DNA of 64,000 nt from a plasmid. Under the pieces are notes generated by a model that saw only the letters and a list, made by a program, of their open reading frames with translations, searched no databases and was not told the origin of the DNA. The stretch lies in the sequence record CP099787.1; one strand, written 5' to 3'. Of the stretch, positions 2,784-45,855 are shown in pieces. Position 1 is the stretch's first letter; the number at the start of each line of letters is the position of its first letter. The translations under genes were made by a program, and so were the position numbers.

Positions 2784-3098
2784 TTATTCACAATTCAAGA
2801 TAGTGTAATGATTTTCACAGATTAGACGAAAATTATTAGTAGCAATTTGAGCGGCATCCTCTATAGAATTAGATGTAAAATCTAAAATTCCATCTATCCG
2901 ATAATTTGAAACTGGACCATATTTACAATCAATAAATACAATTGAGTCATCAATTTGAGTAATGAAATAAATAGTGTCATTGGCTACTAAATGTTTTGGA
3001 TTTTGTGGTGATTCTGAGAAAAATATCCCATGTTCTTTTCCACATGCAGAAATTAAATTTCTGAAGTAATTAAGGGCAATTTTTGTATAAATTTTCAT
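2784..3098 (-). CDS. hypothetical protein
   Basis: The ORF-track N-terminus MKSDRLISIYELKSL is simply the conserved leader translated. The real start is the ATG at 3098 (MKIYTKIAL), 7 nt after the aagg SD. Confidence 0.55.
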   Translation of the reverse strand: MKIYTKIALNYFRNLISACGKEHGIFFSESPQNPKHLVANDTIYFITQIDDSIVFIDCKYGPVSNYRIDGILDFTSNSIEDAAQIATNNFRLICENHYTILNCE

Positions 3099-3103
3099 AG
3101 TAC

Positions 3104-3150
3104 ACCTTAAGCTTTTCAGCTCATATATAGAAATCAGCCTATCCGACTTC
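3104..3150 (-). promoter_or_regulatory. conserved structured 5' leader (HP1 + HP2-SD)
   Basis: gaagtcggataggctgatttc ... gagctgaaaagcttaaggtg, with a G-U wobble in the HP1 stem. Confidence 0.55.
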
Positions 3151-3236
3151 ACCCCTTAATTATACTATATTCTCATGTCTTTTTATTAAGAAAAAACATA
3201 TATTTAGTGTATTTTTTCGTGTTATAAAAGACATTT

Positions 3237-3661
3237 GCAGAGCAACGTGTCCACGTTGCGAACTGATGAAATTTGCGAGCATCCCCCTCCTTGATTACCG
3301 TTTCAAACTTCGAGCGAGTCAGTCAAAATCTGTGATTTTGACTAGACGACCGAAGAAGTGAAACTTCTCCCATTGGACCTTATCCGGTAATAACAAAGCA
3401 ATCCCGCAGGGTTGCGACAAATAGCCCTCTAAATCGCTCTAATTGCCCCTAGATTCAATTTTAAAGATAAACAGCATCCGATCATGCTGCGTTAGGGATG
3501 TTGCCAGTAAGGGGCGAAATACAAGCGTAAAAAAAGAGGATTTGAATCGAGTATTAAAATCAGGTTCAGGCTTTGCATGAAACTAGATTTTAAACTCGAT
3601 GGATCCTCTTTTTCGCTTGGAGTTCGAGCGAAGCCAACTAGCCCGGCCCGTAGGGAACGCC
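3237..3661. repeat. about 425-bp GC-richer, highly self-complementary repeat, copy A (full length)
   Basis: Near-identical to 9018-9442, with a single mismatch. It contains multiple perfect inverted repeats (caacgtgtccacgttg; gtcaaaatctgtgattttgac; aagaggat..atcgagt/actcgat..atcctctt). There is no convincing ORF. Confidence 0.8.
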
Positions 3662-3689
3662 CATAAAAAGATTAAAAAAAAATCAAGTA

Positions 3690-4080
3690 AGATTATTTTT
3701 TACTTTATAAAGCTCAAAAATTTCTTTCGTATGAAGCTGCTCATAATCAAAAAATAGAACTTTATTTTCTCTCGCTTTTCGTACTTCATCAACTTTACGT
3801 CTAAACACCATATTTTTATTGCATAGATAGTCAATCTGTTTGTAAAAGTCACTTTCTAATTCATTAAAAGAATCTGTATCTGATAGATATAGAATTTTAT
3901 TTTTTAAGCTTTTTAAACCTACTGAACCTTAATTTTCACCTACTAGATATCGCCTACAATATTCTTTTTGATGCACATTAGAATAGTGACCACAACCAAT
4001 AAAATTAATAAGATATACAACCACTTGCCTAAAATTATTTTCAACATATTTAAATTATCAATCGAAATTTTCATCTTTAA
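3690..4080 (-). pseudogene. degenerate coding remnants: a 43-codon hydrophobic ORF (MKISIDNLNMLKIILGKWLYILLILLVVVTILMCIKKNIVGDI) followed by about 70 in-frame codons with no start
   Basis: Minus-strand reading frames are too short or lack a start, and the region sits between repeat copy A and the next gene. Confidence 0.25.
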
Positions 4081-4090
4081 ATCCTCATGG

Positions 4091-4103
4091 TTGCGGATCC
4101 GCA
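4091..4103. repeat. degenerate copy (13/14) of the TTGCGGATCCGCAA palindrome
   Basis: The sequence here is ttgcggatccgcat. Confidence 0.4.
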
Positions 4104-5517: not shown

Positions 5518-6213
5518 GAAAGATGCCAGCAACTCAATATCTGGTAAAAGAGGTTTAATAGCACTTTTAAAATCAAGTGCATCATATACCCCTGAGACAC
5601 TGTGAAAAGTACCTACTGGAATAATCTCATTCTCATTTTCTTTCGCATACAGCAAACTTATCAAAATTTCTGAATCTAGAAATTGTTCATTAAAAATTTC
5701 ATCATCTGAAATTCTTTCTACGAAAATGTATCCTTCCTGATGTAACTCAAACTCATACTTATTTCCTAGTTCTAATTTAAAAATTTTATCATCTGAGCAA
5801 TGTACCGATTCTATTTTTTCAACGTACTTAATTAGAAACTCAACAAACCTTGTTTCGATTATTGCAGTATCAGTTTTGATCAATGTTTTTAATGCTGTGA
5901 TATTACAAAACAGTACTACTTCTAAAATAGAAATATTTGTTTTGTTATAATCTTCAACCATAGAAGGGACGTAAAAACCATTGCCAATCATCCAGCTAGA
6001 TGTAGATACATCAATGTTCATCATCTCCAAAGTATTTGACACAGCAGATTGATAAACATTCAAAAAAGCACGTTCTGCACTTGTAAGTTTCGCGCTTTCT
6101 AACTCAGAACCTTTTATTCTATCTAGAAAATCAACAAGCTCATCTTTTCCATCAGCAATTGCTAGAAGCTCGTTACGGGTATAAAAATATAAATTTGCTA
6201 TAAAGTATTTCAT
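5515..6213 (-). CDS. hypothetical protein (232 aa); paralog of 4168..4926
   Basis: Leader upstream; the paralogy is visible in the central region. Confidence 0.6.
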   Translation of the reverse strand: MKYFIANLYFYTRNELLAIADGKDELVDFLDRIKGSELESAKLTSAERAFLNVYQSAVSNTLEMMNIDVSTSSWMIGNGFYVPSMVEDYNKTNISILEVVLFCNITALKTLIKTDTAIIETRFVEFLIKYVEKIESVHCSDDKIFKLELGNKYEFELHQEGYIFVERISDDEIFNEQFLDSEILISLLYAKENENEIIPVGTFHSVSGVYDALDFKSAIKPLLPDIELLASF

Positions 6214-8394: not shown

Positions 8395-8883
8395 TTATAA
8401 ATTATTTTTCATAACCGAGTAAGTATATAACTGCTCCCAAGCCTCTAGTTTTAAAAACATCAGTGCTTTTTCATATGTAGCACCCTTAATATACATCCCT
8501 CCATCCTTGATCAATCCCTCTGACAAATTTTTCTCTATTTCATTTTGAGGTTCTAAATGCTCTTTTTTTAGGAAATCAATATGTTCTTGAATCACTAGGT
8601 TAAAGTTAATGCCTATATGGTTTAATCTTTCAGTCTGACTTAACTGATCATCATTTAAATCATAAGTAGTTAAAAAAGCTATCTCCTTGCTTCTAGCTAC
8701 ATTATGTTTTGCTACCGCAATGTAAAGTGAATGGCCTGTGACAATATTTGTGATTTTAGAATAATATGATTCAGGAAAATCTTTAATCAATTTCTTAGCA
8801 TTTGGATCTGTTGGCAAATTTTTATAATTTAGTTCTACAAATAGATAATTGTTTTTAAAACTTCTGTTTAAATTCATTTTCAT
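8395..8883 (-). CDS. hypothetical protein (about 162 aa)
   Basis: The ORF-track N-terminus is the translated leader; the true start is probably MKMNLNRS at 8883. Confidence 0.55.
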   Translation of the reverse strand: MKMNLNRSFKNNYLFVELNYKNLPTDPNAKKLIKDFPESYYSKITNIVTGHSLYIAVAKHNVARSKEIAFLTTYDLNDDQLSQTERLNHIGINFNLVIQEHIDFLKKEHLEPQNEIEKNLSEGLIKDGGMYIKGATYEKALMFLKLEAWEQLYTYSVMKNNL

Positions 8884-8886
8884 ACT

Positions 8887-8932
8887 CCATAAGCTTTTCA
8901 GCTCATCTATAGAAACCAGCCTATCCGATTTC
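8887..8932 (-). promoter_or_regulatory. conserved structured 5' leader (HP1 + HP2-SD)
   Basis: gaaatcggataggctggtttc ... gagctgaaaagcttatggag. Confidence 0.55.
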
Positions 8933-9017
8933 ACCCCTTAATTATACTACATTTCATGTCTTTTTATTAAGAAAAAACATATATTTAGTGTATTTTTTCG
9001 TGTTATAAAAGACATTT

Positions 9018-9442
9018 GCAGAGCAACGTGTCCACGTTGCGAACTGATGAAATTTGCGAGCATCCCCCTCCTTGATTACCGTTTCAAACTTCGAGCGAGT
9101 CAGTCAAAATCTGTGATTTTGACTAGACGACCGAAGAAGTGAAACTTCTCCCATTGGACCTTATCCGGTAATAACAAAGCAATCCCGCAGGGTTGCGACA
9201 AATAGCCCTCTAAATCGCTCTAATTGCCCCTAGATTCAATTTTAAAGATAAACAGCATCCGATCATGCTGCGTTAGGGATGTTGCCCGTAAGGGGCGAAA
9301 TACAAGCGTAAAAAAAGAGGATTTGAATCGAGTATTAAAATCAGGTTCAGGCTTTGCATGAAACTAGATTTTAAACTCGATGGATCCTCTTTTTCGCTTG
9401 GAGTTCGAGCGAAGCCAACTAGCCCGGCCCGTAGGGAACGCC
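9018..9442. repeat. about 425-bp structured repeat, copy B (full length)
   Basis: Identical to copy A except for one base. The listed ORF 9273..9455 lies inside it and is rejected as coding. Confidence 0.8.
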
Positions 9443-9499
9443 AAAATATTTCCAACAGATATTAAATTATTGTGAAGACACCTGGCTAATTACCACACA

Positions 9500-10036
9500 C
9501 TAAAGATCATGAATTTGTTTCTGATACCAAATTTTGTTTTCGGCTAGAGCTTGATTGAGACGTTTATTTTTAACTAAATCAAGTATTTCCTTTTGCTCAT
9601 GATAGGTTATAAGATTGTCTATCTTTGCTTTATTAATTATTTCTCTTACGTCAGGTTCATTCTTGTATTTTTCATAATAATGATTCGAAATTAGATCTTC
9701 CATTGCATCGTTTGAGACAGGTTTTTTTGCTAAATAATTATCTACACATTTTTTTAATGGTTGTGTATCTACACTTGATTTCAAGACATACCTTGTTTCC
9801 TTATTTAATTCAATTTTAACAAGCGAAAGTTGACTGATATTAATTACATCCATGCAATTATCGTAAATTTCTGAACTTAATTGATCAATTTCTAGCGACT
9901 CAATCGGATAATTGCTTGCTACATAATCTTTTATTTCTTTTTCTACAACCAATTTTTTTAAGGTATTAAGACTATCTTTTGTCATACAACCAGATAATAT
10001 CGAAGCAATGGCGATCATTACAGCTAGTTTTTTCAT
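9500..10036 (-). CDS. lipoprotein (signal peptide + lipobox LSGC); paralog of 10086..10640
   Basis: The N-terminus is MKKLAVMIAIASILSGC. A shared C-terminal block CVD(N/D)YL(A/V)K(K/T)P(V/I)S...NEPDVR..I(N/D)(K/N)AK(I/A)D(N/H)LI(T/S)Y is visible against the paralog. Confidence 0.65.
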   Translation of the reverse strand: MKKLAVMIAIASILSGCMTKDSLNTLKKLVVEKEIKDYVASNYPIESLEIDQLSSEIYDNCMDVINISQLSLVKIELNKETRYVLKSSVDTQPLKKCVDNYLAKKPVSNDAMEDLISNHYYEKYKNEPDVREIINKAKIDNLITYHEQKEILDLVKNKRLNQALAENKIWYQKQIHDL

Positions 10037-10085
10037 CAAATTCTCCTAAAGCTCTTCAGCTCTTTAATGCTCTGATAAGCTACTT

Positions 10086-10640
10086 TTAAAGACTTTGAAA
10101 GTCATGTTGGTATGCAGCTTTACCCAAATCAATTTCATGGTCGTAATGTTTCTTCAACACTAGTCCAAGTATTGTCTGGTATTCATAATAGCTGATTAAA
10201 TGATCAGCTTTAGCGTTATCAATTAACGAACGTACTTCAGGATCATTTTTGAATTGCTCAACTCTTGTATCCTCTTTCAGATTTTTCATTGACTCTTCTG
10301 AAATTGGGGTTTTTACCAAATAATCGTCAACACATGATTTGAGATCATTAATATTCACATCTTTATCTAAAACATATTCAGACTCGATACTTCTGATAGA
10401 TAATTTAACCCTCTGTTTCTTGATCATCCTTTTATTAATATTCAAATATTTACTACAAGTACTATATATCGATGGAGTTACATTTTTTATGTCGCTTATT
10501 ACAATCATCGAATATTGATCTTGAAGGTACGTATTGATAGTTTTTTCTACAATTTCTTCTTTTGCAAAAGCAAAATCTTCGTCACTCATGCACCCGGATA
10601 AAGCTAATACCAGGGCAAATATTAGAGGTATATTTTTCAT
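10086..10640 (-). CDS. lipoprotein; paralog of 9500..10036
   Basis: The true start is the ATG at 10640 (MKNIPLIFALVLALSGC). An HP2-SD leader precedes it. Confidence 0.65.
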   Translation of the reverse strand: MKNIPLIFALVLALSGCMSDEDFAFAKEEIVEKTINTYLQDQYSMIVISDIKNVTPSIYSTCSKYLNINKRMIKKQRVKLSIRSIESEYVLDKDVNINDLKSCVDDYLVKTPISEESMKNLKEDTRVEQFKNDPEVRSLIDNAKADHLISYYEYQTILGLVLKKHYDHEIDLGKAAYQHDFQSL

Positions 10641-10720
10641 CAGTATCACCTTAAGCCTTAGAGCTCCAGTATGAAAATTAAGTCCTATCTAGACTGATAA
10701 GACCTATTTAAAGCTGAACA

Positions 10721-20948: not shown

Positions 20949-21057
20949 TAACCCCAAAATTGTAATACAATGATGTATTTTAATCAAGATCTTTAAACGT
21001 TAATATTGTTAAAAAACATTAATTTAATGAAATATATTTTCGAATTAAACATTACTA

Positions 21058-21237
21058 ACAGAGCAACGTGTCCACGTTGCGAACTGAAGGAATTTGCGAG
21101 CATCTCCCTACTTGATTACCGTTTCAAACTTCGAGCGAGTCAGTCAAAATCTGTGATTTTGACTAGACGACCGAAGAAGTGAAACTTCTCCCATTGGAGC
21201 TTATCCGGGAGTAACAAAGCAATCCCGCAGGGTTGCG
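21058..21237. repeat. structured repeat, truncated copy C (about 180 bp, about 93% identical to the 5' part of copy A)
   Basis: It runs from acagagcaacgtgtccacgttgcg to gcagggttgcg. Confidence 0.75.
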
Positions 21238-21377
21238 CTTCTAAATTGCGAATCTAATTGATTTTAGGTTCATCCACTCTAGTTAATTAATGGAACTGAC
21301 AGCATTTTTTAATATTCTAGTGTGTTAGGGATAGATATACTTACCTACACCTACTTTAAAAATCACATAACACATGT

Positions 21378-23356: not shown

Positions 23357-23442
23357 ACCCCTCAATTATACTACATTTTCATGTCTTTTTATTAAGAAAA
23401 AACATATATTTAGTGTAATTTTTCGTTTTATAAAATACTTTT

Positions 23443-23669
23443 GCAGAGCAACGTGTCCACGTTGCGAACTGATGAAATTTGCGAGCATCCCCCTCCTTGA
23501 TTACCGTTTCAAACTTCGAGCGAGTCAGTCAAAATCTGTGATTTTGACTAGACGACCGAAGAAGTGAAACTTCTCCCATTGGACCTTATCCGGTAATAAC
23601 AAAGCAATCCCGCAGGGTTGCGACAAATAGCCCTCTAAATCGCTCTATTTGCTCCTAGATTCAATTTTA
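23443..23669. repeat. structured repeat, truncated copy D (about 227 bp)
   Basis: Near-identical to the 5' half of copies A and B, including the same upstream flank. Confidence 0.75.
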
Positions 23670-23814: not shown

Positions 23815-24021
23815 ATGGGATCTACAGTACGTCTCCGGGATCCAACAGCTCAACTTGTTATGGATACCGCATTAGATATGCAACAAGAGCAACGTCAAAT
23901 GGTTAAAACTTCAGATATTGTTGAAACATTGGTTCAAAGATATATAAAGACAATTAGCTTTGAAGATGTTCAACAAACTATTGAAAATCGCAAAAAGAAT
24001 AAAAAAAATAAGGACAAATAG
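23815..24021 (+). CDS. hypothetical small protein (68 aa)
   Basis: A strong SD (gaaaggaggatttgttATG). It is the lone plus-strand gene inside the minus-strand array. Confidence 0.5.
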   Translation: MGSTVRLRDPTAQLVMDTALDMQQEQRQMVKTSDIVETLVQRYIKTISFEDVQQTIENRKKNKKNKDK

Positions 24022-41045: not shown

Positions 41046-44000
41046 TTACTTTTTTGGGTCAATATCTCTTCTGTTCCACTGGCCAAATGAAGCACCATTA
41101 CTGTTTATATGGGTTTCATTTTTTGGCATAACCTTTTCTTTCAACTCGGTAAATGCTTCTTTCGCATGACCAATAGGATCAAAATCAATCGTGTCCTTAA
41201 TATCTTTACGTTTCCATTCTCCTACTTTTTCTTCAAGCTCAAAGTTTCTATCTTTTGTGTGCTCAGTTTTATTATGTTGATTCTGCTGAATAACTGACAT
41301 ATTACCTTCAATATCATCCAGACTATTTTTCACACCACTAATTGCTGAAGATGGCCCCGTATTCACTGACACTTGTTTAATTCCAGTACCAATATTGCTA
41401 GAATTTTTAGCAAAATCCGCACTGATCCCACTTCGGCTTCCCACATTGCCTTTATTTGATCTAAAGTCACTTGGCAAATTAAATTCAATTGGCTTTCCGT
41501 CAGCATATGTGCTTGGAGTCTCTTTAATTCGTGCAGTTTCATTAGCTAAATAATCTTGCATGTATTGGGTTTGTTGCTGCGGACTTAAATTACTAAATTG
41601 AATCTGGTCTAGGCCAAAATGTTGAGCAACTTCTTTTTTAAACTTAGGATCTTGTGCAAAGTTATAACCACTTTCCATTGAATGAGAGCTTGCAAAAGAA
41701 GTACTACGTGCTTCTTCATTTCTTGAACTTAATTGTGCATTTCTATTTTCTGCATAACTATTATTTTCATAAAGGCTGGCCGAACGTTCATGACCATTTG
41801 ATGAGGTGTGAGTTTCATTTTGACTTTCATGTTTGTTATGTTCTAGATCATTACGATAATTAACTCCGGTAGATACACCGCGATACTCATCAACTGCTGA
41901 AGTTCTGTTTTGACCTTCATCTTGTGTACCACTCCAGTTAATACCTTTCTGACCTTGTGCATAGACTCCAACACCAGCTTGAATACCAACTCCAGCTTTA
42001 CCACCTTTACCACCTTTACCACCTTCTCCTTTAGATACAGGTTGAACATTCCCTGGATTAGTTGGAGAGCCAGCAACACGTTTTTCTTCAGAGCCTCCAC
42101 CACCACTTCCGGCACCACCACCTAAGCCTAAATTTCCGTTTGCTCCGGCAGACATGGCCGTATAATCTGTCTTACTTAATGAAACACCCGTATGTGTAGT
42201 ATCTGATTCGTTTTGGTTCGTTCCAGTCGTATACCCTTTCGAATTTCCAACTCCTGTTAATGAAGAATTAGATACACCTCTCTCATCCGTTAAGCCATAT
42301 GTTTCAGATCTGTTATATGAGTTTGTATTCGTTGAACCGGTTGCTTTGTCATATGTCGCACCAACGCCATATACAGAATCTGTACTCTGTCCATATCGGT
42401 TTTCGTTGCTTCTGCTTATTGATTGGCCTGTATGAAGAGATTGCGCTGTTGTATCTTCAAGCTTTTGAGTATTCATAACTCCAGATGGGGTTAGTGTATG
42501 GCTAGTTCCATACTCATTTGTTAAAGTTGTTAAACCTCGGCTTTGTGAAAGATTGCTATCATATTTGTTCATTGAAGTGTTGTTGACTGAAGATGAATCA
42601 ATATTAGTTTCACCCAATGTCATATTACCCATTGCCATTGAACTGCCGATCGACGAACCTGCTGATGTAAAGCGCCCAACTATTTGATTTCCAATTGCAG
42701 CTATATCACCATAAAATCCTCGTGCTATCCATGCAGCTAGAGGTATAGTTAGAATTACAAATAATCCAATAACAGTTTGAATATCAACGACTGTGGAGTC
42801 TAATACCCCCATTTTAGTAAAGGGAATGCCCTCACTAAAATCTAGAGCTTCTGCTTTCCGTCTTAGATATAGCATTGAAGCATGATTAATTAATGCGAAA
42901 ATTAGAGGAAAAAGGCCAAGCGTTAAAAAGCTTGTAAAGTAACCGGATAAAATATTTACTGCCGTACTCGGTTTTAAAACTATTAACATGACCGCTATTG
43001 GGAATGTTGCATATAGAACAACTTCTAGCCAATTTCTCACTATCGGAATGACTTCAAATGCTAATTTTGATAAAACTGCGGCTGCACCTTTCATTTGTTC
43101 TGAAGCTGCTGCTGCACCTGCCGATGCCATTAATTCTTGTATACGAGTTTGATCATTAATAAGTGCCGGTAATTCAGTATTTGCATCTTTCATAATGTTA
43201 TTAAACATACTTTGTTTAACAGCATCAGAAGCACTTTGATTAGCTCCAAGTATCCAGCTATAACTTGTTCCAACAGCATTTGTATACATAGATAAAGCAG
43301 TCGCTTCATTAAAATCTATAAATGCATTTTTTCCGTAATAGCGCATTGCTGCTGCAATACCATCGTTAACTTGTTGCTTTAATCTTGTTGCTCCTTCGAC
43401 ACATGTGACGGTTTCAGGTGCACCTTTCAAAATACCCAGAGTTACAAATCGCGCTGGATTTGTATTGGAAAATAGCTTGTTCCAACTATCTGTTTTCTGC
43501 ATCAAATCTTCAGCATTCAATACCCCATCTTGCATGTCGTAAATTGAAACATTCTTTGATATATTGCATAATATCAGCACGCAAACTAGGACTAGTGATA
43601 CTCATTTTATTTGTGTTTCTTATTAGGGCTTGACCAAAGCCCATATCACCAGTTCCTGTTAAACTTAGGCTGCTAGGTACGGAAGTAAGTGTTTCATATT
43701 CTTTAGTTATCCATCCCGTTGTGAAATTTGTTGTGAATGCTCCCATTGCTAACAGCCAGGGAACATTACCCACAATTTTTGGAGGCTCTTGCTTAAGTTT
43801 ATCAACTACGGCCACTGAACTAACCGGCGCCATAATGATTACTACAATAAAGTAAGCCCAACCAAAATTTCTAACAAACTTTCCTAAATCTCTATCTAAA
43901 GCAAATACAAAAAGCGAAGCCATGATCGCAGTTAAAAAGATGAATTTTAAAGCCCCTACCCAGTCGCTACTTCCCATGAGAGATGCAACAGCATTAAGGA

Positions 44001-44064: not shown

Positions 44065-45492
44065 TTATTTATCTAATGTGTTAGCGAAGACAATTGACTG
44101 TCTTAAAGCTGGAGCTAAATTTGAATGTAAAGTTCGCTCCATATGCTGAACTTCCTGGGCGATATTAAATGAGACATTGGAACGTGCGTAAGCAACTTGC
44201 GTGCTTTGGTTCAAGTCTGCTCTTGTTTTATCTAAGGTTTCTCTAATCTTAGTAACTTCTTGAGCAGTTACAGCATCAGCCGTTCCAGCAATAATATTGC
44301 CTAAAGCAGCTTCAACCATCTTTGAAGTTATTTCAAAGTACGCAAGAGCATATTTTGCTGCTATCAGTTCTTTGTACTGGTCTAAGGCCATCATTGCAGC
44401 AGTACTATCACCACCATATCGAGTATTCAGTGCTATGATTTTATAGATCGGAATATCTGTTAAATTGATGAATTGAATGATTCCACCAGCATCAGTAATT
44501 GGGCGACGTTGCGAAATAGCATCCGCTAGTAATCTCATCTTTTCATCTACTAGCGAATAGAATGTTTCATTAGTTGTTAAGTTGTCTTGAACAAGAGATG
44601 TACATTCATCTTCACGTGTACCATCGACACAACGCCAAACTGGAAATTGTGCTTGTGAACTTGCACTAGTACCAATGAGTGTAGAAATATTATCGATTCT
44701 TCGCGGATAAGCGACTATTTTAGGCGTTCCATTGGTTGGATCTTCAGTTATAACTACTGTACCCACCATTGCCATGATTAAGTATTTTTGGTCTGTAGGT
44801 AATGCTGAAATTTTTGATAATGCTTTCCAAGTCAAGTTACCATCCGGTATATGATTTTTCATATTTGGATCTTGATTAGATAAATTATCTAAAGTTTGAT
44901 TTGTTTGTTGTGAATTTCCCTTATTCTTGGTCCATGCTTCTGTCATATCACTGAAGATATTTTTTATTGTTCCAAAATTCATTGAAGATTGTTCGCGTCC
45001 ACGCAATGCAACAGTAGAAGTTGCTGCATTAACAATCCCTTTCGCTGCCTCACACGAATCAATGTTCATTCTATTAATTTGTTGAGAGGCAGATTGAAGA
45101 GCTTGCAGAACGTTATCGCAAGTCGGACATAAATTTTGTAAAGCTAATTTAAAGCCATATCCCAATGCATTTGAGCCGATATTTTTTAGCATGGCTACAA
45201 ATTGTTCTTTATTTACAAAGCTGAAGCCACCCATATACAAGTCAATGCCGCCACAACCAGCATTAGCTGAAGGAGGGGTAATAGCAGCTAGATTATATGT
45301 GGTGTTGGGAGTTCGCATAAACAAACTCCCACCTGTCATATAATTCATAGTCTGGCCCTGGATTGCGGTTGGCTGAGTAACATTTCCACGCGCATTTATT
45401 TGGTCAAAAACTTCTTGCATTGAGGCTGGATCGGCATTTGCAGAAACCGTAATACCAAATAGAACACCTATAATTAATGCTTTAATTTTCAT
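44065..45492 (-). CDS. traH: TraH (F-type)
   Basis: A 475-aa product with a signal peptide, matching TraH in size and position. An HP2-SD leader lies upstream. Confidence 0.7.
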   Translation of the reverse strand: MKIKALIIGVLFGITVSANADPASMQEVFDQINARGNVTQPTAIQGQTMNYMTGGSLFMRTPNTTYNLAAITPPSANAGCGGIDLYMGGFSFVNKEQFVAMLKNIGSNALGYGFKLALQNLCPTCDNVLQALQSASQQINRMNIDSCEAAKGIVNAATSTVALRGREQSSMNFGTIKNIFSDMTEAWTKNKGNSQQTNQTLDNLSNQDPNMKNHIPDGNLTWKALSKISALPTDQKYLIMAMVGTVVITEDPTNGTPKIVAYPRRIDNISTLIGTSASSQAQFPVWRCVDGTREDECTSLVQDNLTTNETFYSLVDEKMRLLADAISQRRPITDAGGIIQFINLTDIPIYKIIALNTRYGGDSTAAMMALDQYKELIAAKYALAYFEITSKMVEAALGNIIAGTADAVTAQEVTKIRETLDKTRADLNQSTQVAYARSNVSFNIAQEVQHMERTLHSNLAPALRQSIVFANTLDK

Positions 45493-45525
45493 AACATCAC
45501 CTTAAGCCGTGAGGCTCCTTTATTA

Positions 45526-45855
45526 TTAAGATACTTGAATTGGTTTATCGCAATTCTCATCAGAGGTTTTAGTACCACTTAATTCTGGTTTTTTAAGTTT
45601 TCTGCTCCTTTCGTTTAATGAACTAGAATGTAAATGTTGCGGATCCGCAATCTTAGTTTTACTAGATGTTAATTCTTTATGTTCATTACAAAAACGGCCA
45701 GATTCAACTTTGATTAATCTATTTTTCTGAAGTGAATGAGCTGTTTCTCTTTCACTATTAATCTTCAAAAAAACATCTTGCATTGAGTTTGAGCCAGCGA
45801 ACATAGGGCCAGAACAAATCAAAGATAAGGAAATTACTATTAATTTTGCTTTCAT
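45526..45855 (-). CDS. small exported protein/lipoprotein (109 aa)
   Basis: Signal peptide with LICSG; HP2-SD leader upstream. Confidence 0.5.
   Translation of the reverse strand: MKAKLIVISLSLICSGPMFAGSNSMQDVFLKINSERETAHSLQKNRLIKVESGRFCNEHKELTSSKTKIADPQHLHSSSLNERSRKLKKPELSGTKTSDENCDKPIQVS
45637..45650. repeat. 14-bp palindrome TTGCGGATCCGCAA (inside ORF 45526..45855)
   Basis: Read directly from the sequence. Confidence 0.8.

Follow-up and report, generated by a model that had tools for sequence, protein, structure and literature searches.

A folded, portable repeat in the leading region of an Acinetobacter conjugative plasmid, a candidate complementary-strand start on entering DNA

Results

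The locus and the gene layout of the window

The repeat copy described here (copy B, 8954–9442) lies within a 64,000-nucleotide stretch of plasmid DNA (CP099787.1), referred to below as the window. To its left is a leading-region gene coding for a hypothetical protein of 162 amino acids (8395..8883, minus strand; from the ORF list and an annotated near-identical plasmid). To its right are two adjacent genes for predicted lipoproteins (9500–10039 and 10086–10649, minus strand), whose products are 35% identical, in agreement with a preliminary description of this DNA, which had called them a paralog pair. The repeat cassette consists of three layers: a minus-strand promoter with its 5' leader, and two structured modules, M1 and M2.

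Many Acinetobacter baumannii conjugative plasmids of the pACICU2/RepAci6 type (MOBF, MPF_F) match the window with 99–100% identity. A phage origin was considered for the window and rejected, since it is plasmid DNA of this type. According to the annotation of a near-identical plasmid, window position 1 lies just right of the end of the accessory-T4CP-mobF operon, and the 580-bp intergenic region that follows it corresponds to window positions ~15–594. The oriT of the family to which these plasmids belong (PTU-Pse5) has been placed in the 580-bp region of MG954379 adjoining the relaxase operon (bioRxiv 10.1101/2024.01.30.577996), and this published proposed oriT region maps approximately to the same interval, ~15–594. 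Almost every gene between 1.1 and ~30 kb is a minus-strand gene directed back at the oriT intergenic region. Among these are genes for a J-domain protein, an orphan N6 DNA methylase, a PAPS-reductase-family protein, ParA/ParB, H-NS, a thermonuclease, and a DUF2786 protein. The F plasmid has an equal layout, with leading genes, oriT, and tra genes running in one direction throughout, and for leading genes in that orientation the transferred strand is their template (PMC11541004). Because the gene layout matches that of the F leading region, we infer that the window + strand is the transferred (T) strand, entering from the left end. With the left end entering first, all four copies of the repeat would lie in the leading region.

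One perfect palindrome of 14 bp, TTGCGGATCCGCAA, is present 12 times plasmid-wide (~0.02 expected), at positions 4091, 6480, 14327, 19536, 26473, 28893, 31929, 39388, 45637, 54956, 60014, and 61744, and is also present directly 3' of M2 in two related plasmids (L004 and L063). It looks like an operator or a parS-like site of a plasmid-wide DNA-binding regulator.

A recurrent promoter-leader element

The first layer of the cassette is a copy of an element designated D2 (8884..8970, minus strand; promoter scan and repeat search), which comprises a σ70-type promoter and a ~50-nt 5' leader with two small hairpins, HP1 and HP2. The boxes of this promoter, which serves the 8395..8883 gene, are a −35 element TTAATA (8970–8965) and a −10 element TATAAT (8946–8941), with a spacing of 18. 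The leader core, AGCCTAYCCRAYTTC, occurs nine times in the window, always on the + strand and always within 1718–23356 (0.01 expected), at positions 1718, 2147, 3136, 5416, 7114, 8918, 19439, 20934, and 23342. The promoter-leader, with its strong TATAAT, precedes nine different minus-strand genes, all of the leading region. Since only four of the nine cores adjoin a structured element, the other five having none, the promoter-leader is a separate unit. The promoter and HP1/HP2 leader that the preliminary description had included in the left flank of copy B are indeed there, but as an element distinct from the structured repeat. The nine-fold recurrence of the sequence suggests co-regulation, or a shared translation or RNA-binding signal.

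The promoter-leader is followed by an AT-rich spacer (8954..9015, + strand), which folds as a weak hairpin pairing 8956–8964 with 9007–9015 (DNA fold −10.4 kcal/mol, z −2.5) and in which TGtTATAAA, an extended −10-like sequence of the + strand, is found at 9001–9009. Homologous spacers of other plasmids do not conserve this hairpin: those of L004 and L058 gave z +1.1 and −0.5, respectively. A promoter-mimicking hairpin in the spacer was accordingly rejected as a candidate, being weakly present in this plasmid type and absent from homologous spacers.

Four copies of the repeat upstream of unrelated genes

Global alignment of 3050–3720 with 8832–9502 confirmed that copies A (3173–3661) and B differ by one substitution over 489 nt, A at 3506 (gccAgtaagg) in copy A versus C at 9287 (gccCgtaagg) in copy B. 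The A at 3506 breaks one C-G pair of the CCC/GGG hairpin in M2 of copy A. On the left, identity between the two copies reaches as far as the neighbouring gene's start codon; on the right, it ends exactly at ...GGGAACGCC (3661/9442). The left flanks (3104–3172 for copy A and 8886–8953 for copy B), previously described as the same, are similar (~90% identity; 89% according to the repeat finder) but not identical, with six substitutions and one indel in ~69 nt.

A repeat search and the covariance model bore out the existence of four copies, of which A and B are full length and C and D partial. Their distances from the oriT end are 3.2, 9.0, 21.1, and 23.4 kb, and the minus-strand gene that each of them precedes is a different one. 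In copy A, M1 occupies 3235..3369 (+ strand; covariance model R1, 148.6 bits) and M2 occupies 3489..3661 (+ strand; covariance model R2, 186.9 bits). Copy C (~21056–21240) is 71% identical and its 3' half is a decayed remnant: its M1 (21056..21190, + strand; R1, 147.7 bits; alignment A1) is followed by what is left of M2, GTGTTAGGGAT at 21322, located with a 5'-core regular expression. Copy D (23379–~23680) consists of the 5' 300 nt of the repeat, with M1 at 23441..23575 (+ strand; R1, 148.6 bits) and no M2, the sequence diverging beyond ~23680. Downstream of copy D, a + strand ORF of 68 amino acids (23815–24021) occupies the place of M2; it has its own promoter-like sequence and a strong ribosome-binding site, and is among the few + strand genes of the leading region.

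The products of the genes that adjoin the four copies have no BLASTP similarity to one another, as was claimed when the repeat was first noticed. Because these genes are mutually unrelated, the repeat is not a duplicated gene-plus-upstream segment. Portability, rather than simple segmental duplication, is likewise upheld by the independent presence of the modules in many unrelated plasmids. No target-site duplications at the repeat and no association with a transposase were seen.

M1 and M2 are conserved structures of the + strand

The core of M1 in copy B (9016..9150, + strand) is supported by alignments A2 and A3 with RNAalifold and scored 148.6 bits with R1. It comprises a hairpin, P1 (loop TGTCYA), followed by GCGAACTGA, a tract of pyrimidines, CCCTCCYTGATTACCGTT, and then P2/P3, a long hairpin whose loop is CTGTG and whose internal loop is AGCGA / GACCGNAG. 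The consensus contains 32 pairs, 15 of them with compensatory double changes among 16 diverse homologues. In a trimmed alignment of 15 sequences, 97% of the cells were paired, none of 500 shuffles reached the observed values, and slid-partner controls gave 31–45%. In most homologues M1 ends with a small hairpin, here GCAATCC-C(GCA)G-GGTTGC (9179..9196, + strand; identified from the alignment), whose loop varies between GCA, GAA, and GGA. Between M1 and M2 stands a linker hairpin, CAGCATCCGATCATGCTG (9253..9270), with a terminator-like score on the minus strand; it was seen in no other M1-M2 linker and is peculiar to this plasmid type.

M2 (9270..9442, + strand; alignment A4; R2, 189.9 bits) has its 3' end at the repeat boundary. 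It comprises a closing stem GCGTT/AACGC, helices GGG/CCC and GTTG/CAAC, a hairpin CCC-GTAA-GGG, a long hairpin of ~95 nt, a mini-hairpin GC-GAA-GC, and a 3' hairpin CCC-GTA-GGG. All M2 homologues have one shape: besides the closing stem GCGTT/AACGC, it includes GGG/CCC, a variable long hairpin, and a 3' hairpin with a GNA cap. Compensatory changes were found at 24 of the 64 consensus pairs in eight homologues; 94.7% of the cells were paired, no shuffle out of 500 matched this, and slid-partner controls gave 29–52%. Folding z-scores of the repeat were −6 to −8, and the DNA fold on the + strand had z −8.0. M1 and M2 are therefore selected structures, far beyond chance. They are also separable, since M1 stands by itself in copies C and D as well as in many plasmids, and M2 does so in A. 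seifertii and one metagenomic contig. In the former of these (pAS62-4; L059, 8002–8446), the apical part of the long hairpin of M2 contains a ~270-nt AT-rich insertion, while the conserved base is intact.

The functional strand of both modules is the + strand, opposite to the mRNAs of the neighbouring genes. For cells whose pair is possible on one strand only, the ratio of + strand (G.U) to minus strand (A.C) cells was 13:1 in M1 and 18:3 in M2, and the element-sense strand was more stable than its complement as a DNA fold in 16 of 16 M2 homologues tested. Loops of the d(cGNAg) type are classic extra-stable mini-hairpins of single-stranded DNA and are uncommon in RNA. C(GNA)G triloops cap four hairpins of the + strand, and their middle base varies between homologues (GCA/GAA/GGA; GAA/GGA/GTA; GC-GAA/GCA/GTA-GC in the mini-hairpin; GTA/GAA). 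Because the functional strand is opposite to their mRNAs, the structured part cannot be the 5' leader of the neighbouring genes. Of the "portable regulatory cassette" originally proposed, a repeated portable unit upstream of unrelated genes thus remains, but its structured part is not a cargo-gene leader, and any effect it had on the neighbouring genes would be indirect, through promoters made double-stranded early.

A search of Rfam 15 with the whole window gave no matches at the gathering threshold, and with region 8850–9520 at E≤10 only chance miRNA/lncRNA matches. The homologous M1/M2 loci had no Rfam match either, and no tRNA or tmRNA was found. Among homologues, promoter and terminator scans revealed no conserved promoter position and no conserved terminator for a + strand RNA. 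Literature searches with strings of the core sequence returned unrelated primers only, and nothing usable was found as published sRNA or transcriptome evidence for these plasmids. Two further candidates were rejected: a small minus-strand ORF behind AAGGAGG (the complement of CCCTCC), which is not conserved in the pNDM-type homologue, and a promoter mimic inside the M1/M2 hairpins, as the TTGACT of the M1 3' arm is not conserved.

Distribution of M1

M1 was found only in Acinetobacter plasmids and a few MAG contigs (exact-pattern scan and covariance model R1), and in no viral contigs. The plasmid backbones are unrelated to one another, with relaxases of the MOBF, MOBQ, and MOBP classes. In MOBF/MPF_F plasmids, the M1 copies are direct and all in + sense. 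MOBQ/MPF_T plasmids of the pNDM-BJ01 type carry an inverted M1 pair around 3.6 kb of genes beside traD. In pNDM-BJ02 (L057) the pair is at 41700–41834 (−) and 45420–45554 (+), beside traD and the presumed oriT, and the 3.6-kb block between the copies consists of small genes; the inverted copies could pair with each other on single-stranded DNA. M1 is present in MOBP/MPF_T plasmids too. An A. lwoffii plasmid (L087) has one + copy and two − copies; one of these three, at a distance of 4.8 kb from mobC, has the predicted T-strand sense, and the remaining two are on the opposite strand. M1 flanks a rep gene in this plasmid and in another, L050, and is also found in plasmids of 10–30 kb. Approximately ten of the 12 copies checked by eye are head-to-head with a gene start, separated from it by an AT-rich spacer of 115–230 nt. 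In small plasmids, M1 lies directly 5' of a co-directional gene.

M1 as an oriT was considered and rejected because of its copy number, four copies up to 23 kb from the relaxase operon, and its association with three MOB classes.

Distribution of M2

Unlike M1, M2 has a counterpart in phages. When phage genomes were searched with the element by BLAST, two inoviruses matched, Dulem virus 63 and Dulem virus 60. In them, the matching sequence is a full M2 within a non-coding region of 1 kb, on the same strand as Zot, the replication protein, and TspB, and with a compensatory change from GTTG/CAAC to GTCG/CGAC. The only other match of M2 in the phage collection was a weak one to a Pseudomonas Pf-type phage, a 24-nt partial resemblance that was not counted. 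Dulem virus 62 is a further inovirus with M2. An earlier, over-specific M2 pattern found none of the viral contigs, whereas a looser one, designed around the conserved base of the M2 fold, found nine IMG/VR contigs. Four of these nine (L082/L080 and L078/L076) are genomes of 4.7–8 kb encoding Zot, inovirus coat protein B, and Rep_trans or G2P; in both that were examined (L082 and L078), M2 is on the gene strand. Contig L078 also has a match to Rfam sRNA-Xcc1 at 6017–6100 on the minus strand (53.6 bits versus a gathering score of 53).

Covariance model R2, built only from Acinetobacter M2, recovers the inovirus M2 at full length with 38–96 bits, as well as M2 in Moraxella plasmids, in a Bacteroides plasmid, and in Bacteroidota-like contigs, where the neighbours are RadC and ArdC-like. 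R2 matches on opposite strands were partial and palindromic only. A diverged M2 in a Vibrio MOBF/MPF_F plasmid was recognised by BLAST and folding, not by R2.

In MOBF plasmids, M2 is always in the predicted T-strand sense wherever this sense can be derived from synteny with F. This is the case for two of two M2 copies in the window and for four of four in Moraxella bovoculi, all within 5 kb of the mobF operon, two of them inside the oriT intergenic region and none elsewhere in the 50-kb plasmid. It also holds for both copies in M. ovis pMOV1, the first of which is inside the oriT intergenic region. In the MOBF plasmids of A. indicus and A. seifertii, as well as in that of Vibrio (MOBF/MPF_F), M2 is antisense to adjacent leading-type genes. 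In the A. indicus plasmid (L058, 5790–5930), the DnaA-box-like sequences TTTTCCACA and TTGTCCACA are found between diverged M1 and M2, and GTTCGCTTGCGATT is common to this M1-M2 interval and to the intergenic region upstream of M2 in Dulem virus 63 (L073, ~1385–1405).

Discussion

The structured repeat (M2, and probably M1) probably does not serve as an RNA leader but acts on the T strand, in the form of folded single-stranded DNA. We put at roughly 0.55 the probability that the M1-M2 cassette is a single-strand initiation (ssi) signal, or complementary-strand origin, that makes entering DNA double-stranded and switches on the adjacent leading genes; this reading is better supported for M2 than for M1. 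Relative to the genes, M2 is antisense in plasmids and in the same sense in inoviruses. The packaged strand of filamentous phages such as Ff is the coding strand. By this analogy, plasmid and phage M2 would share the strand that enters the cell as single-stranded DNA. Being common to filamentous single-stranded DNA phages, M2 points to a signal for replication or establishment of single-stranded DNA, and the need common to plasmid and inovirus at entry is the initiation of a complementary strand.

A scheme of this kind would operate as follows. During conjugation, the window + strand would enter the recipient 5' to 3' with the oriT region at the left end first, so that each repeat element would come in just after the gene block on its left. 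Once inside, the element would fold into a junction or hairpin structure that a protein can recognise and that SSB cannot flatten, and would recruit a host priming activity, for which a PriA-type primosome, primase, and RNA polymerase are candidates; no feature of the repeat points to one of them. A primer made on M2 or M1 would be extended leftwards, toward oriT, across the adjacent promoter, leader, and gene block, which would be turned double-stranded and hence expressible. The four copies would divide the first 24 kb into back-filled segments, the promoter nearest to each becoming usable first. In filamentous phages, the M2 fold would be the complementary (minus) strand origin. The priming function and the priming enzyme are thus conjectural parts of the scheme.

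Several findings count against a complementary-strand start, and some of them favour its main rival, which concerns M1 above all and according to which M1-M2, or M1 alone, is a structured non-coding RNA of the + strand, transcribed from its own promoter divergently from the neighbouring gene and acting in trans, for example as a regulator, a decoy, or an anti-defence RNA. M1 orientation is mixed in MPF_T plasmids (pNDM-BJ02 and L087), and M2 is also carried by viral contigs of unassigned type (L075/L083). The head-to-head arrangement of M1 with gene starts, seen in either absolute orientation, is also how a divergent RNA gene would look, and in small plasmids M1 stands directly 5' of a co-directional gene. 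The extended −10-like TGtTATAAA is just upstream of M1 on the + strand, at a distance of 7–15 nt in copies A and B, with TATAAA lacking the TG in copy D. The nested multi-helix fold of M2 with its G.U pairs is typical of RNAs. The strong covariation and the long invariant unpaired tracts, such as CCCUCCYUGAUUACCGUU and the loop CUGUG, also speak for an RNA. We nevertheless regard such an RNA as unlikely, if to be taken seriously. Across homologues, −10-like hexamers occur at inconsistent distances from the structure, a conserved terminator is missing, and the modules match no Rfam family. The entering T strand cannot template a + sense RNA, yet M2 clusters at the start of the leading region and is there always in the T-strand sense. 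One RNA would have no obvious common role in conjugative plasmids and inoviruses, and the four C(GNA)G-capped hairpins are of a kind typical of single-stranded DNA. A fuller version, in which M1-M2 is an undescribed large (~430 nt) ornate RNA and M2 an RNA class common to conjugative plasmids, Bacteroidota elements, and filamentous phages, would assign it a role in establishment or anti-defence that needs no translation; we find it about equally unlikely.

A further alternative brings RNA polymerase directly to the folded T strand, as at an Frpo-like single-stranded DNA promoter, from which the adjacent leading gene would be transcribed before a complementary strand exists. The genomic logic of F is alike, with repeated, structured, non-coding copies on the T strand upstream of different leading genes (PMC11541004), and the spacer hairpin of copy B puts TGtTATAAA on the would-be non-template arm for leftward transcription. 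This hairpin is, however, not conserved in other plasmids, and inspection of alignments A3–A5 by eye revealed no conserved −35/−10 pair in the right orientation within M1/M2. The fold is a multi-helix junction rather than one long promoter-mimicking hairpin, there is no sequence similarity to the F leading region, and a good duplex promoter outside the structure already serves the gene; we therefore consider such a promoter improbable.

It is highly improbable that the modules are recombination or mobility sites, that is, ends of small mobile elements or folded recombinase sites that shuffle gene blocks between plasmids: M1 does occur on unrelated backbones and as an inverted pair around the 3.6-kb gene block of pNDM-BJ01-type plasmids, and the near-identity of copies A and B suggests gene conversion, but neither target-site duplications nor a transposase association were seen, the inter-copy segments are multi-gene blocks of 2.4–12 kb, M2 in inoviruses and in oriT-proximal intergenic regions would be left unexplained, and the covariation reflects selection for an intramolecular fold of 135–173 nt with conserved unpaired nucleotides.

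The conversion of entering plasmid DNA to double strands and the expression of its first genes have been worked out in detail for F-like and IncI plasmids only (Frpo/ssi), and prior searches for such signals elsewhere relied on similarity to Frpo. RepAci6-type plasmids are large conjugative spreaders of carbapenem and aminoglycoside resistance in A. baumannii, and their leading region is marked by a covariation-supported structure different from Frpo. Conceptually, the repeat of this window is nothing out of the ordinary for a leading region; the M2/M1 family, especially the M2 common to plasmids of several phyla and inoviruses, appears to be undescribed so far. If a complementary-strand start is the correct reading, there would be a cross-phylum family of complementary-strand origins that can be found with a covariance model, a concrete target for early establishment in Acinetobacter, and a link between the replication signals of plasmids and filamentous phages.

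Several known systems bear comparison. As in the ssi class in general, M2 is located on the strand predicted to be single-stranded and is strand-specific, and M1 and M2 form stable, conserved intrastrand structures. An oriT, in contrast, is one site beside the relaxase operon that goes with one relaxase family, which the repeat is not, and the proposed oriT lies separately at ~15–594. Like Frpo/ssi of F and ColIb-P9, the repeat is non-coding, strongly folded, strand-specific, and repeated upstream of different leading genes on the T strand, and its proposed role is the early conversion or expression of entering single-stranded DNA. The repeated copies upstream of leading genes are thus a feature in common with the Frpo/ssi family; sequence similarity and a single box-bearing hairpin are not. 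Frpo (in F, L071 6016–6622 and 11404–12012) is a single imperfect hairpin of ~330 nt, whereas M1 and M2 are multi-helix folds; Frpo is reported to carry −35/−10 boxes (PMC11541004), whereas M1 and M2 have no recognisable promoter boxes; and M2, unlike Frpo, is common to phages and other phyla. Comparison of M1/M2 with the F leading region (blastn with word size 7 and nhmmer with profiles) gave nothing significant, and R2 did not match it.

The minus-strand origin of M13 is a folded single-stranded DNA template for priming by RNA polymerase (PMC7948647). Ff-type origins are folded elements of the packaged strand, intergenic and near a replication gene, and several inovirus M2 are likewise. The Ff origin, however, consists of two hairpins recognised by RNA polymerase (PMC7948647), while M2 is a closed fold of a three-way type with the conserved base GCGTTAGGGAT ... 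AGCCCGNCCC-GNA-GGGAACGCC.

The n' sites of the phiX174 type and the primase sites of the G4 type are also short structured signals of single-stranded DNA that occur on either plasmid strand, near origins or leading regions, and M1, too, is found in both orientations and next to rep (L050 and L087). PriA n' sites share an AAGCGG hexamer. The junction loops of M1/M2 conserve AAGCGA, GAGCGG, or AGCGGAAA, which bear a tentative resemblance to this hexamer; n' and G4-type sites are functionally defined classes. The Rfam plasmid motifs PAGEV, GEBRO, and ARRPOF, which have been proposed to function in replication as single-stranded DNA (Weinberg et al. 2017, PMC5737381), are similarly conserved structures of 200–350 nt on plasmids, but M1/M2 match no Rfam 15 model even at E≤10. 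In the comparisons made by sequence or covariance model, M1 and M2 matched none of these systems, and they differ from them in architecture; their closest functional relatives would be Frpo/ssi, the minus-strand origins of filamentous phages, primosome assembly sites, and the Rfam plasmid motifs for single-stranded DNA.
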